Source: Dictyostelium discoideum
Taxonomy: Eukaryota
Assembly (NCBI GenBank): GCA_000004695.1
Contig: CM000155.2
Location: 2,784,001 to 2,848,000 of the forward strand
Reading direction: 5' to 3'
Length of the DNA stretch: 64,000 nucleotides
Part shown: positions 21,934-33,834 of the stretch, one piece after another
Position numbering within the stretch: the stretch's first letter is position 1
Layout: each line of letters opens with the position of its first letter
Notes under the pieces: model-generated
The model's input: only the letters and a program-made list of their open reading frames with translations
Told to the model about the DNA's origin: nothing
The model's database searches: none
Made by a program: the position numbers and the translations under genes

Positions 21934-24900
21934 TTAATTAATAATAACTCTTAAAGAATTAGTTCTACCAAATACATCTGGATCATACATTTCTTCAATA
22001 CAAGCAGAAGGAATTAAATATTCACCTCTAGTTGAAGCACGAAGTGTGTATTTATAAGTGTATTTACCACGTTCCATTTGATTGGTAAAGACTTCACATC
22101 TTTCATCTCTTTGATTTTGGAATTCCCAAACTGTACCTTCCAATCTGAAATCAGTTTTATCAACGATATCGAAACCACCAGCGAATTTATCAACTAATGC
22201 TAAATTATAACGATCAACTTCAGTTTGAACATTAAGTGTAACCAATACTTTTGAACCAACTGAAACTTTGAGTACACCAGTTTCTGAATCAAATTCCATC
22301 TTATCACTCTTTGATTTTGGTGAATATTGTCTATGAATTGTTAAACCATTGAAATGTTCTTCAGTTGATAAATCAACTGTTGCATATTTAATATTCATAC
22401 GATAATATAATTTACCTTTACCTTCTTTTTGTAACCATAATTCAGATTTTGGTATTGAAATTATTGAGGTTGTTGATGATGATGGTTGAGTTTCAACTTT
22501 TTCAGAATTTTCATCAACATTTGATGATGGTTCAATAACTTGTTGTTTATCAGATTTAATAATATTATTAAATTTAACATTTTCTAAATCAGATTTTGAA
22601 TAAAGTATTGATAATGGTACTTCAATTGAATAAGAGATTGTTGATTTACCATCAAAGTATGGAGTTTGACCACAGAAAGTTGTTTTAAGATTTGAAGAAT
22701 CAGAAGTATTAACTAACCAACCTCTGGATAAACATTTTGGAGAAGAACGTTCAAAAGTTGAACTGAATTCAGCTACTGCAGTAATTACCCAACAATTAGT
22801 TTGAATATTTTTCCAAGTACCATTTTCTTTTCTATCCATTAAACCAATGATAACCTTTGAAACTACATCAATATTATAACGTGATTGAATTAATGATCTT
22901 GCAATGATTGCAGTTGTTCTTTCGAGAGAATGGAATAATTGTGATCTAATTAATTTATCATAATAAGAGTTAAAGTAGAGACAATTATTTTCTTCAAATG
23001 AATTTCTCATTAGATAGGTGATGATTTCATCACGCTTCTTAACGACTGATGAATCATTACCTTGAAGTGTACCAAGAATCCAAGCTAATGATTCCAATGA
23101 TAGGATTGAGTAAGTATGAGTTTGATAGAATTTCATAGCCAATTGAGTAACTGATGATTTATTCTTCTTTGAATGAATGCAGTATAAAGTGAATAGAGCA
23201 TAGGATACAGTTGCTAAAATGAATTGATCTTTTGATTGAAGATTAACTAAAATGTAACGATCTAACCAATCGATTGAGTTCTTTACCAATTGTTTCATTT
23301 TTGATGATTCAATTTCATAGCCATATTCAATCAATGTTGCAATGGCTTGAATTGCATGAACACTTTCGAAATCATTCTTTTGGAATGAAAGATTACTATG
23401 ACCTGCATATGATGGCCAGGTTGAGAAATCACCATTTTCATTTTGACGATTTCTTAAATCTAAAAATAGTTTACCAATCTTTGATTTTACAATCTTTGAT
23501 GGTGGTAAATTACGTGATGATTTCTGTTCACCAATGATATGATATAATGAGGCGATACCAATTGCAGCCGATGCTAAATTCTCTGTTCTTTCAAATGGAT
23601 AGTTATAAACCGATAGGAATGCATCATGAATATTTTGAAGAATGGTTGAACTAATATCTAATCCTAATGAACCAAAGATTGGAAGTGAGTCTTGAGGCAT
23701 TTCAATTGGTTGAATGACACCGGCACCATCATCGATGACACCATAGACAGAGGTGGTACGAGTTGTTGGTGGATTAAAGATTGGAATTGAAACTTGCATT
23801 GCATCACCATATTTACCAGATACACAAGAGATTTGAATTGAACCCACACCAGTATTCAATGTTTTAACATTGATATAGATAATCTTTCTCTTCTTTTGTT
23901 CAACAAATGAAAAGTGACCAAAAGTTGATGTACCATTTGAATTTAATATAGTTAAATGTTCAGAGCATTTTACACCAATCTTTACCATTCTATTATTATT
24001 TGAATTGTTACTTACTACAATACCAATAGTACATGAATCGTTAATATTCAAAAATCTTGGTGGTACACAACGAGTTGATACCAAAACCTTTGAAGTAATT
24101 AAACTTTCACCTTTACCAAACTTTTGTTCATCTTTTGAACAAACTACACCCCAAATACGATAACGTGTTAAATTATCTGGTAAATGAATTGGAATTGTAA
24201 TTTTACCAACTTCATTTGTAAATACTGATGGTGTGAAATTTGCTAATGCATTGAAATCTTTTCTCATCATTGATAATGATGATAATTCAGTTTCAAATAA
24301 ACCATCTTTTTCATAATCTTGATCATCATCATCATCATATTCTGAAGATTCTGATTTACTTTCATCGTCATCATCATATTGTCTTTTTGATTCTTCTTCA
24401 ACTAATGATGATTTTCTTGAAAGTTTCTTATCACTACCACCAAAATCAAGTAATCCAACTTCTCCTAAAGTTTCAGATCTTGAACTTAATGATGTTGAAA
24501 CTGAAGTACGAGTAGAAGAAGAGGAAGGGCTTTTCTCTTTATATTTTCTACTACTACTACTTCCAGAACCACCAAAACCACCAAATGAACTTTTCTTTGA
24601 TCTTTTCTTCATCAATGAAGCAGATTGTAATGTAGAGTTACCTTCCATATCAGCTCTTAAACTATCAGGAATGAAACCATCCAATGATGGATCATCATCT
24701 AATGAAACTTGTTTACGATAACTATCTTCAATGGTTGGGTCATATTGTTCAACAAAACAACTTTGCACATAACGAACGGTTAAAGCACTCTTACCGATAC
24801 CACCATCACCAACAATTACAATTTTATTTTCAGCGGTACCAGTGTAACCTGCTGATAATTTACTTACGATAGCAAATGCAGTATGAACGTTGAAACCAGT

Positions 24901-30900: not shown

Positions 30901-33834
30901 AGATGTACCAATGATTGAAAATTTTTCAACAACTAAAGTACCAAAATAAGTTTCATCTTTACTTATTAATGGACCCTCTAGCGAACGAACACCAGGTAAA
31001 ACTGAAAATTTGATTGAACCAATTGGTAATGGTTTAACTGAACGGAAGAAAACTAAACGACCATCTAATTTAGCATTTTTGAAAGAGTAATCAATATCTT
31101 CAAATTCTTCGAGACTAATTTTGGTTACTAATTGAACTTCGAATTTCTTTGCACTCAAAAAAGTGTCTGGTTGTAAACGAACATTGGCAATTACAGATTC
31201 TGGATCAACCGGTTGATTAAAAGATAAACAAAACAATTGATTGGCTTTAATGCTTGATAGGGTTGGATATCTAAAGTTTACATTTGGTAATGTGGTTGTA
31301 ACCTCACCAAATATTGCCTTATCGAAAACTTTACCCCATGGTGTTGTAAATTGACTATTTGGTTGTGGTAAAATTGTATAAGTGGTTGCAGGTTTGATTA
31401 AATCAAAGGATGCAGCTTTGAATGACAGTATATTTCTTGTTAAAGCTGACCAAGTACCTTCGATTGGTGGTTGAATAAGTGGTAAAACCGATGGACCCAC
31501 TGGAAGATAATCCAATTCAATTTGTACATCTGTTCTTGATGATATAAAAGCATCTGGTGTTAAAACATAATTATTATAATCATATGAATTATTTACAATT
31601 GGTTGATTGAATGAAACTTTAAATGAATCATGAACTAAATCGGTTGTACATGTTAATTGTGGGTAAGTTGCAAAGAAATAATTATTATATCCACCATCGA
31701 GTTTGGTTGGGAGTGGACCTTCCATAGATTGAAGACTACCATCAAATTCAATTGAGTAACCTAAATCATCACCCAATGGTTTCAATGGTTTAATAGCAAA
31801 CCAACTACCTGGTTCTTGAGTGTCAATAAATCGAAGATAATTCTCTTTAATTGCTTTTCTAAAGGTAGTAATTGAATGAAACTCTGCAGCATTTGAAATG
31901 ATTTGATATTCAACCGCCTTTGAAAGTAATTGATCAACTTTAAATGAAAATATCTTTTTAAATGATTCTTCATTAACTATTTGATTGTATCTAAAGATTA
32001 ATATAACATTATTTGAAAAGGTATTACTTGTTGATGCAGATTTACTATTGATATTTAAACTTTCGAAATTTATACCATCATAACCAAATGCACCTGTTAA
32101 ATTGATTGAAGCAGTTTGAAATTTCAATTCAATCTCCTCCATTTGTTCACCTGATGTTGATTTTGGACCATTTTCAAAAAACACTGTATAAGAGGTAGAA
32201 GATGGCCAATTTGAATTATCACTTAATTTATAGACTAGTGAATTTGCTGATAGTACCCAATCACCATCTGGGAATGATGGTGTAACTTTTGGACGCCATG
32301 TAATCTCTGATGGATTTGCCAATGAATTTAAATTACCAAATGAAATCACTAAATCAATATGTGGTGAATATGGTGCTGTGGTAATATTTGGTTTAAATGA
32401 TTGAAGAGTTCTAAAATCTTTTTGTTCAGTTAATAATTTTTTAACTGTACCCTCTAAAGATGGTGCACCTTGTAACACTGAAATGATAACGGTTGAACTA
32501 CTATTGAAACCAAATGTTGGTTTAATACCAATATTTCTACCTTCATAACCGGTAACTAAATCCTTTAAGATTGGATCTTGTTTCATGATTTCCTCATGAA
32601 TGAATTGAAGTACATTTGGTGTACCCTTTGCAACATGAGCAGGTGCACTTCTTAAATTGGTAGCTTGAATGAATGGTAACAATTCTTGTGGTGAAACTTT
32701 TTGATTGAAACCAATGAAAATCGTTTGATTATGAGAATACTCTCTTATTGAAGCTGGCATGAATAATTCAATCTTTAATGTCTCTGTAGTGAATTCAAAT
32801 TGTTGACCTTGAGTTGTGATAATATTGGTGGGTGATACCTTTATCTCTGCTGGTATCGTAATGGTATAGAGTGTACTCTTCTTCCATGACTCAATTGGTG
32901 TATAGGTAAGTGTACGTTGGAATTGATCAAATGTCCAACCATTGGTTGGTTTATCTCTTGCAAAACCTGGATTACGTGGTGAAACCTCTGGACACCATAA
33001 TAATTTATTGGTTTCTTTATCAACTATATCACTTGGAAATATATTAAATGTTAATTCAATAACATAATCAATTGGTTTTTGATCACCTGGTTGAAAATAT
33101 GCTCTAATTTGTTCAACTTCTTCTTTTTTATTTTTTAATCTTTCTAATTCTAATTCTAATTTCTAAAATTAAATTAAAATATTAAAAAAAAAAAAAAAAT
33201 CAATAATAAAATAATTAAATAATTAAATAATAATAATAATAATTTTTATATATATACTTACTCTATCAGTTTCTTTTCTATTTTCATCATATTGTTTTTG
33301 TTTTTGTTCTTGTTCTAATCTTTCAGCTTCAGTTTTTGGTGGAACTAATGGTGGTGGGAATTTAAGTTGACGAGTTGTTTCAATATTACTTGTATTTTCA
33401 AATGGTTTATCTGTTGGTTCCCTAATATCTGTTGAAAAACCTTGAATTGTTTTATTAATAGTTGATAATTGATAAGTTGATGGAATTTTTGATAATAATT
33501 CTTCAAGTTCAATACCTGTAATATCACCTTCTTTCTTTTCAATTGTAACATCTATTTTATTATTATTATTATTTGATGATGATGATGCTTCATCAGTTGG
33601 TTTAGTTGTTGTTGTTGTTGTTGGTGTTGATTCAACTGATTCTACTGGTTCAATTGGTTTATCATTATTAGTCGAATGTTCAGTATCTTCAATTGGTTTA
33701 TCATCAGTATCTTTAATAGATTCTTTCTCTTCTTTTGCTTGTTTCTCTTGTTCTTGTTGAAGAAGAATTGATTCTAATTCTTGTTTTTTAACTTCATGAA
33801 CTGAGAAATCGAAATTATCAAAACTATTTGACAT
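21934..33834 (-). CDS. Giant multidomain protein (~3,933 aa): long N-terminal repeat region, a circularly permuted Rap/Ras-like GTPase domain, an acidic Ser-rich linker, and an alpha-2-macroglobulin/TEP-like C-terminal module (thioester motif degenerate); no signal peptide
   Basis: Exon 1 is 33262..33834 (MSNSFDNFDFSVHEVKKQELE...RKETDR), acidic with a coiled-coil character. The 99-nt intron 33163..33261 runs GTAAGT...TTTTAG. Exon 2 is 21934..33162, an 11.2-kb stop-free exon. The in-frame extension upstream of the annotated Met at 32760 reads ...KLELELERLKNKKEEVEQIRAYF.... The GTPase block (about 24700-25210) reads [22 protein letters not shown]...VIVIGTKADL...[72 protein letters not shown]. 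The A2M-like part (21934-24650) contains LPDNLTRYRIWGV (compare A2M PDTITEW), NYPFERTENLASAAIG at the thioester position (compare MPYGCGEQNM), QNENGDFSTW, NGTWKNIQTNCWVITAV, and a receptor-binding-domain-like C-terminus. The 11802 nt are in frame. Confidence 0.8.

Follow-up and report, generated by a model that had tools for sequence, protein, structure and literature searches.

A circularly permuted Ras-family domain within a giant alpha-2-macroglobulin-like protein of Dictyostelium discoideum, and its possible place in the bait region

The YRG/YlqF/YjeQ (RsgA) proteins are circularly permuted P-loop GTPases that keep all their G motifs; they are ancient TRAFAC GTPases of ribosome assembly, outside the Ras family, with the motif order G4-G5-G1-G2-G3 and a chain broken between β3 and α2. 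In 2008, Elias and Novotny (Biol Direct, PMC2430557) gave the name cpRAS to a Ras-family variant with the order G3-G4-G5-G1-G2. The existence of cpRAS disproved the notion that the YlqF type was the sole viable circular permutation of a GTPase, a point made at that time with the Dictyostelium protein DdiCPRas2. According to these authors, DdiCPRas2 has 3,933 residues, with cpRAS at 2844-3013 and two blocks, ~2140-2771 and 3158 to the C-terminus, that resemble bacterial COG2373 proteins (A2M_N, A2M_N_2 and A2M-like); its N-terminal half was called domain-less. Here we describe a gene, very probably that of DdiCPRas2, on the minus strand of a 64,000-nucleotide stretch of D. discoideum DNA, the whole of which is referred to as the window.

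The cpRAS-VWA proteins (DdiCPRas1 and proteins of some metazoans, Monosiga, Capsaspora, Acanthamoeba and Naegleria) have the same β2/β3 break and the same junction of α5 to β1. They are ~840-970 aa long; their cpRAS lies close to the N-terminus, and a zinc finger and a VWA/Sec23-trunk domain come after it. In the window protein, by contrast, cpRAS is internal and lies within a scaffold of the alpha-2-macroglobulin (A2M) type. In a survey of 2026, CPRas still appears as a possible gene of the last eukaryotic common ancestor. As for the scaffold, bacterial A2Ms (of the thioester type, E. coli ECAM/YfhM and Salmonella SaA2M; PDB 4u48 and 4rtd) are periplasmic lipoproteins of ~1,500-2,000 aa, and their protease-sensitive bait is short, at roughly 20-56 aa. 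The window protein shares with them the macroglobulin (MG) keyring, A2M_BRD, A2M and bMG10, as well as the RD(D/E)R and ExMY motifs, and it is without CLEQ, as are the thioester-less type II proteins (YfaS, and MagD of P. aeruginosa). In contrast to bacterial A2Ms, it has no signal peptide and is extended at the N-terminus by ~1,900 residues of Ig-like repeats, and its putative bait-equivalent segment spans ~410 aa and contains the GTPase domain.

Gene model and identity with DdiCPRas2

The gene is very probably Dictyostelium cpras2 and its product DdiCPRas2 (EAL60755.1), one of the founding members of the cpRAS family, because length, domain coordinates and flank boundaries match those of PMC2430557. 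Both proteins have 3,933 aa, a cpRAS domain at ~2844-3013 with the order G3-G4-G5-G1-G2 and a 'TIE' switch I, and COG2373/A2M-like blocks, in an AT-rich genome context of the Dictyostelium type with short AT-rich introns. BLAST placed the boundaries of the A2M-like flanks at ...2742/2781 and at 3157-end, in agreement with the published ones. When the two were compared by published length and coordinates, no difference was detected. A preliminary description of this DNA had implied that joining an A2M to a GTPase was a new architecture; the arrangement is in fact that of a known family, cpRAS, and DdiCPRas2 was already described with this architecture in PMC2430557. A whole-protein homologue search returned nothing above 40% identity. 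The permuted domain being already known, what the present analysis may add are details of the scaffold, that is, the bait placement, the loss of the thioester and of the secretion signal, and the N-terminal repeats.

A scan of the minus strand for open reading frames (ORFs) showed a very long ORF (21934..32760) and an upstream one (33223..33834). Translation of 33900..21934 on this strand revealed that both are parts of one gene split by a short AT-rich GTAAGT...AG intron, and the splice 33262|33162 preserved the frame. The outcome was a two-exon gene (33834..21934, minus strand) with the following parts.

33262..33834, minus strand: exon 1 (aa 1-191), with the ATG at 33834 and in-frame stops before it; the N-terminus is hydrophilic, without a signal peptide
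33163..33261, minus strand: AT-rich intron of 99 nt, GT..AG; its removal keeps the frame, and stop codons are met on read-through
21934..33162, minus strand: exon 2 (aa 192-3933), stop-free, 11,229 nt including the stop codon

The product of ~3,930 aa and the 11.2-kb stop-free exon of the preliminary description were thus both recovered. Given the base composition of the exon, 3,742 stop-free codons would arise by chance with a probability of ~1e-136, which excluded a chance ORF. The A+T content of ~78% previously given for the exon was too high, the measured values being 70.4% for the exon and 76.9% for the whole window.

A possibility was that the arrangement reflected an artefact of assembly or gene modelling, whereby a separate Ras gene or two fragments had been fused into the A2M-like ORF. 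A reviewer had raised the same worry in 2008 (PMC2430557), and the window does hold four assembly gaps, each a run of exactly 100 N (6899-6998, 43581-43680, 55152-55251 and 58293-58392), plus a single N at 7905. These gaps lie elsewhere, however: the gene itself is free of N gaps and its frame is continuous for 11.2 kb. Codon usage was homogeneous along the gene. The GC content at third codon positions was 0.119 in the Ras block versus 0.129-0.156 in the structured parts of the gene. Compared with random blocks of 168 codons from the same gene, the synonymous-codon likelihood of the Ras block ranked at the 53rd percentile. As both measures match the rest of the gene, a recent insertion or a foreign origin of the Ras block was also ruled out. 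No competing ORF overlapping the GTPase block exceeded 81 aa, which together with the continuous frame ruled out a nested or antisense gene, as had been claimed before. Moreover, the Tieghemostelium lacteum orthologue KYQ91426.1 (3,799 aa; identity 40%, query coverage 99%) and a EukProt orthologue of 3,750 aa, presumably from another dictyostelid, have the same architecture, the same motif order and the same motifs, and the T. lacteum genes sit on contigs of 1.4-1.5 Mb. The 2008 authors had likewise found a D. purpureum orthologue that confirms the architecture of DdiCPRas2 as genuine (PMC2430557). Collectively, these data effectively refute an artefact; the preliminary description was right to reject a misassembly, and the comparison of orthologues that it had proposed showed the permutation to be kept.

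The permuted Ras-family domain

All the peptides quoted in the preliminary description for the five G boxes were found, in the quoted order, in the minus-strand translation. The order G3-G4-G5-G1-G2 means that the chain is opened between β2 and β3 and that α5 is joined to β1, unlike the G4-G5-G1-G2-G3 order of YlqF/YjeQ, and this distinction, already drawn in that description, stands. The parts of the domain are given below.

24706..25209, minus strand: cpRAS domain (aa 2843-3010), in the order β3-α2-β4-α3-β5-α4-β6-α5-linker-β1-α1-β2, from Pfam, phmmer and AlphaFold2 (AF2)
25162..25179, minus strand: G3/switch II, DTAGQE (aa 2853-2858), Gln61 equivalent present
24988..24999, minus strand: G4, TKAD (aa 2913-2916), NKCD in orthologues
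24901..24915, minus strand: G5, ETSAK (aa 2941-2945), from a motif search
24826..24855, minus strand: end of α5 and linker of 3-5 residues (aa 2961-2970), native C-terminus joined to native N-terminus
24787..24810, minus strand: G1/P-loop, GDGGIGKS (aa 2976-2983), from a motif search
24727..24744, minus strand: G2/switch I, YDPTIE (aa 2998-3003), with the Ras-family 'TIE' effector motif

As anticipated in the preliminary description, the Pfam Ras profile (PF00071) matched the full protein in two stretches (E=1.4e-46), the larger of which covered profile positions 46-157, and phmmer against the PDB made the reversal visible: query residues 922-971 aligned to Ras 5-54, and query residues 802-910 to Ras 55-162. 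When the halves were re-ordered by hand, PF00071 gave a single stretch over 1-157 of its 162 positions, with 179.5 bits. Overall, Pfam Ras scores were 158-180 bits against a cut-off of 21.6, while RsgA_GTPase reached 19.3 bits, below its cut-off of 30. Searched against the PDB, the de-permuted sequence matched S. rosetta Ras (5wdr, 1.6e-49), R-Ras2, Rap1b, KRas and HRas nearly equally, with 157 residues aligned and all values within 1e-46 to 1e-49. Switch I, YDPTIEDSY, is exactly the Ras sequence. The P-loop, the switch I Thr, DTAGQ, TKxD and SAK are intact in the window protein, and so are the equivalents of Gly12, Gly13, Lys16, Thr35 and Gln61.

Rap carries Thr at position 61 (DTAGTE). The label 'Rap/Ras-type' used previously was therefore correct as to the Ras family, and it failed as to Rap: the window protein reads DTAGQEE, with Gln61, and S. 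rosetta Ras and R-Ras2 scored slightly above Rap1b. Because Ras, R-Ras2 and Rap1b scored almost equally and Gln61 is present, the domain is, judged by its sequence, a Ras-family G domain in general and not specifically a Rap one. Two further figures had to be revised. A linker of 10 residues had been proposed. In the alignment with canonical Ras fragments, α5 runs through '...KLSAGY', so that 'SAGY' matches the end of this helix, and β1 starts ~5 residues later, which leaves ~3-5 residues for the true α5-to-β1 linker. The domain had also been placed around residues 2400-2700, a figure that fits if residues are counted from the long ORF's first ATG; it lies at 2843-3010.

Structure prediction went in the same direction. 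The AF2 model of the domain had a predicted template modelling score of 0.72 and a mean predicted local distance difference test (pLDDT) of 72.5, and it contained all the secondary-structure elements of Ras in permuted order. The input alignment gave it the depth of canonical Ras as separate fragments. The best Foldseek matches were Ras structures, over ~110 residues at a root-mean-square deviation of ~2 Å; since Foldseek depends on sequence order, this confirms the β3-α5 portion only.

Since no residue required to bind and hydrolyse the nucleotide is missing and all of them are conserved, the cpRAS domain would most likely bind and hydrolyse GTP like Ras, cycling between the GTP and GDP states. 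One may wonder, instead, whether it is a pseudo-GTPase, that is, a nucleotide-independent structural or docking module frozen by permutation and insertion. G4 is TKAD and not NKxD, which would point that way, but TKxD is also present in active Rho-family GTPases such as Rac1. The T. lacteum paralogue KYR02569.1 (P0003) is without DxxG and the switch I Thr and keeps the architecture, so that the scaffold does tolerate a dead G domain; in the window protein, by contrast, all five motifs are intact and recur in two orthologues whose domains are 42-54% identical to it, and the de-permuted domain has the high Pfam Ras score given above. Also in favour of a pseudo-GTPase is the argument of Anand and colleagues, in the form quoted in PMC2430557, that a broken β2-β3 turn should impair folding. 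On balance, we consider a pseudo-GTPase unlikely and keep to a domain that would cycle between GTP and GDP.

The paralogue P0003 deserves a separate mention. Its degenerate cpRAS domain lies at ~2620-2810 and retains GDKGVGKT (G1), TKSD (G4) and SAK. The D. discoideum COG2373-like protein without GTPase reported in 2008 might be an orthologue of P0003 with an unrecognised remnant of the domain.

A search with the 173-aa cpRAS domain recovered no cpRAS-VWA protein, being swamped by canonical Ras. Two high-coverage matches of this search were set aside: P0006 is apparently an artificial concatenation of Ras segments differing at P-loop position 12, and P0007 is a Ras with a duplicated N-terminal segment.

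The A2M-like scaffold and the position of the insert

That the host is a giant A2M-like protein, as initially described, was borne out by Pfam, with A2M_BRD, A2M and bMG10 above their cut-offs and MG2 below. The parts of the scaffold are as follows.

28660..33039, minus strand: N-terminal half (aa ~233-1692), repeats, with out-of-register BLAST matches to the giant protein P0004 and a weak Pfam Big_5 match
27037..27300, minus strand: MG2-like macroglobulin domain (aa 2146-2233), 25.2 bits, below the Pfam cut-off of 32.8
25549..25971, minus strand: A2M_BRD, PF07703 (aa 2589-2729), Pfam, 49.5 bits, above cut-off
24265..25500, minus strand: putative bait-region-equivalent segment (aa ~2746-3157), between the anchors ...NPLNIFYP and MRKDFNALANF...
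23977..24237, minus strand: A2M, PF00207 (aa 3167-3253), Pfam, 26.9 bits, above cut-off
23578..23607, minus strand: YNYPFERTEN (aa 3377-3386) at the thioester position, Cys absent, where bacterial proteins have YPYGCLEQ
21976..22347, minus strand: bacterial-type C-terminal MG10, PF17973 (aa 3797-3920), 106.7 bits, with RDER (aa 3876) and EEMY (aa 3914)

With the bacterial homologue P0005, BLAST values of 1e-58 and 1e-85 were obtained, and P0005 in turn matches the SaA2M and ECAM structures. The stretch '...AEVCLLVIDESIIALSQHNVENPLNIFYP' of the window protein aligns to P0005 ~1163-1195, and 'MRKDFNALANFTPSVFTNEVGKITIPIHLPDNLTRYRIW' aligns to P0005 ~1340-1380. The SaA2M equivalents of P0005 residues 1195 and 1365 are 915 and 972 (ECAM 958), respectively. 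The bait region of ECAM is the disordered Arg923-Leu942 inside MG8 (PMC4498604). As the mapped interval brackets these residues, aa ~2746-3157 would be the equivalent of the bait region. On this alignment, cpRAS and its low-complexity linkers may occupy the bait-region position of an A2M, a placement that may go beyond PMC2430557. The segment, ~410 aa in all, is composed of an Asn-rich pre-linker of ~100 aa, cpRAS, and a post-linker of ~150 aa rich in Ser, Asp and Glu. P0005 itself holds a CarboxypepD_reg domain in this interval, which indicates that the loop accepts insertions.

The linkers (24265-24705 and 25210-25500, minus strand) vary in length among the window protein and its orthologues P0001 and P0002. 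Within them, these three proteins have conserved patches, YFHGxS..(V/I)LxQPxL before the domain and K.KK..FGxFGGS plus SLSxR after it, and these patches may be linear motifs.

No CxEQ thioester motif was found anywhere in the window protein, and the same loss was seen in P0001-P0005. In this respect the protein resembles the thioester-less type II class (YfaS/MagD). RDER and EEMY are retained in the C-terminal MG domain; the corresponding motifs of ECAM contact the thioester domain or the cleaved bait (PMC4498604). A heuristic scan of the protein revealed neither a signal peptide nor a transmembrane segment, the mean Kyte-Doolittle value being -1.13 over the first 40 aa and no 19-residue window exceeding 1.57. 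Thus, the window protein is probably cytosolic. The bacterial P0005 has an LLLAC lipobox.

BLAST aligned the N-terminal half, in several registers, to the N-terminal repeats of P0004, a protein with a Pfam match to Big_5 (Ig-like). A motif (A/V)PSLEGPL recurs in this half at aa 426, 670, 918, 1240 and 1479.

P0004 is the closest relative without a Ras domain. It is encoded by L001 (1-13596, gene 185-13201), a sequence of ~13.6 kb with a single ORF, ~52% GC, and AATAAA followed by poly(A) at its end. Although JGI labels the protein as a bacterial 'YfaS', L001 is a eukaryotic mRNA. The scaffold of P0004 is laid out as in the window protein, with N-terminal Ig-like repeats and a low-complexity stretch of ~380 aa at the bait position; thioester, signal peptide and cpRAS are all absent, and a LPDNLTRYRIW motif is identical in the two proteins. 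In 2008, eukaryotic hits to the host family were found only in Dictyostelium (PMC2430557). Since P0004 comes from a eukaryotic mRNA, the host scaffold family exists in another eukaryote, apparently contrary to that report.

Possible mechanism, origin and genomic surroundings

In the permuted domain, the chain would enter at β3, leading into switch II, and would leave after β2, just after switch I. With entry and exit at the opened β2-β3 hairpin, the scaffold would be tethered mechanically close to both switches. The GTP/GDP state might then be relayed to the A2M scaffold around the domain, or it might control the docking of partners of the Ras-effector type. The domain would accordingly act as a nucleotide-controlled switch or scaffold and not as part of a secreted protease trap, and a cytosolic location would fit the need of a GTPase domain. 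The most economical model would be a switch or docking site in the very loop that triggers the conformational change in classical A2Ms.

Several points weigh against this picture or against the identification with DdiCPRas2. In the AF2 model, β1-α1-β2 was weak (pLDDT 45-62), because the alignment depth there came only from separate fragments, and the packing of the two halves was not confident; as to a refolding of the halves into a G domain, a check proposed in the preliminary description, the permuted order of elements was recovered and a confident packing was not. A direct phmmer search of the A2M-like flanks against the PDB gave no match, and the insertion point was mapped transitively, via the one bacterial homologue P0005. 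The cytosolic location was deduced from the hydropathy scan alone. The exact 3,933-aa sequence was absent from a collection of 15 billion proteins, so that identity with EAL60755.1 is a matter of length and coordinates only. Last, the literature search turned up no experiments on the function, localisation or GTP binding of cpras2, and no functional work on any CPRas protein.

A bolder reading, which we consider highly improbable, is that cpRAS in the bait loop replaced the protease bait as the trigger of a cytosolic, thioester-less machine of the A2M type. It draws only on the mapped position, the retention of RDER and EEMY, and the loss of the secretion signal. Two versions of it are possible. 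In the first, GTP/GDP switching at the opened hairpin would drive or gate an A2M-style conformational change. In the second, the Ras domain would be an integrated decoy, and cleavage or modification of switch I (YDPTIEDSY) by a Ras-directed bacterial toxin would cut the bait and spring the trap. Among such toxins are RRSP-type endopeptidases, which cut Ras and Rap1 within switch I, and Dictyostelium is a bacteria-feeding amoeba.

As to the origin of the domain, the published scenario is that a COG2373/A2M-like gene, possibly bacterial, received a copy of an already permuted cpRAS from a cpRAS-VWA gene (PMC2430557). The permutation might also have arisen in situ, by tandem Ras-Ras duplication and reciprocal truncation inside this gene, as the preliminary description proposed, without import of a pre-permuted copy. 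Circular permutations classically come about by duplication and subsequent truncation, yet no remnant of a second Ras stands beside the domain, whose flanks are of low complexity. The monophyly of DdiCPRas2 and cpRAS-VWA lacked bootstrap support (PMC2430557), but cpRAS-VWA proteins from metazoans, choanoflagellates, Capsaspora, Acanthamoeba and Naegleria, and also the second Dictyostelium gene, have the same break point, and two independent permutations at one hairpin would be less parsimonious than one. The standing of CPRas as a possible gene of the last eukaryotic common ancestor also argues for import. An in situ permutation therefore seems to us quite unlikely, and we retain the copying of a permuted cpRAS.

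The classification of the protein is unchanged by the present analysis. The bait placement and the fact that the eukaryotic family as a whole has lost thioester and secretion signal could guide a first experiment on cpras2, as could the N-terminal repeats and the existence of a eukaryotic relative that has the scaffold without Ras.

Around cpras2, the window contains the following genes, all of an ordinary eukaryotic kind, for none of which did we see a functional link to cpras2 within the window.

930-1616: enoyl-CoA hydratase
14298-16049: FtsH-like AAA and M41 protease
17637-19661: TPR protein
46538-47647: metallo-beta-lactamase-fold protein
48051-48890: phosphotriesterase-family protein
49626-51185: RhoGEF
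61339-62244: WD40 protein

Two more ORFs, 38106-39005 and 39241-40254 on the plus strand, match N- and C-terminal parts of leishmanolysin (Peptidase_M8, profile positions 2-178 and 223-516) and probably form a single gene interrupted by an intron. Genes for tRNA-Ile (596-668) and tRNA-Leu (52863-52944) are also present. At 54350-55993 (minus strand) lie two near-identical copies of one ORF 3' end (...CGEDETSEHIFFNCKAHIKNTQEIF..., closing with YNNSLSTFYK and a stop codon), split by the N gap at 55152-55251; a long poly(A) tract can be seen downstream of one copy, and the AT skew of the interval is -0.42. A tRNA-Met gene (56202-56275) and a tRNA-His gene (56392-56463) stand a few hundred bases away. 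The two copies look like truncated non-long-terminal-repeat (non-LTR) retrotransposons targeted to tRNA genes, of the Dictyostelium TRE type, which would explain the AT skew.

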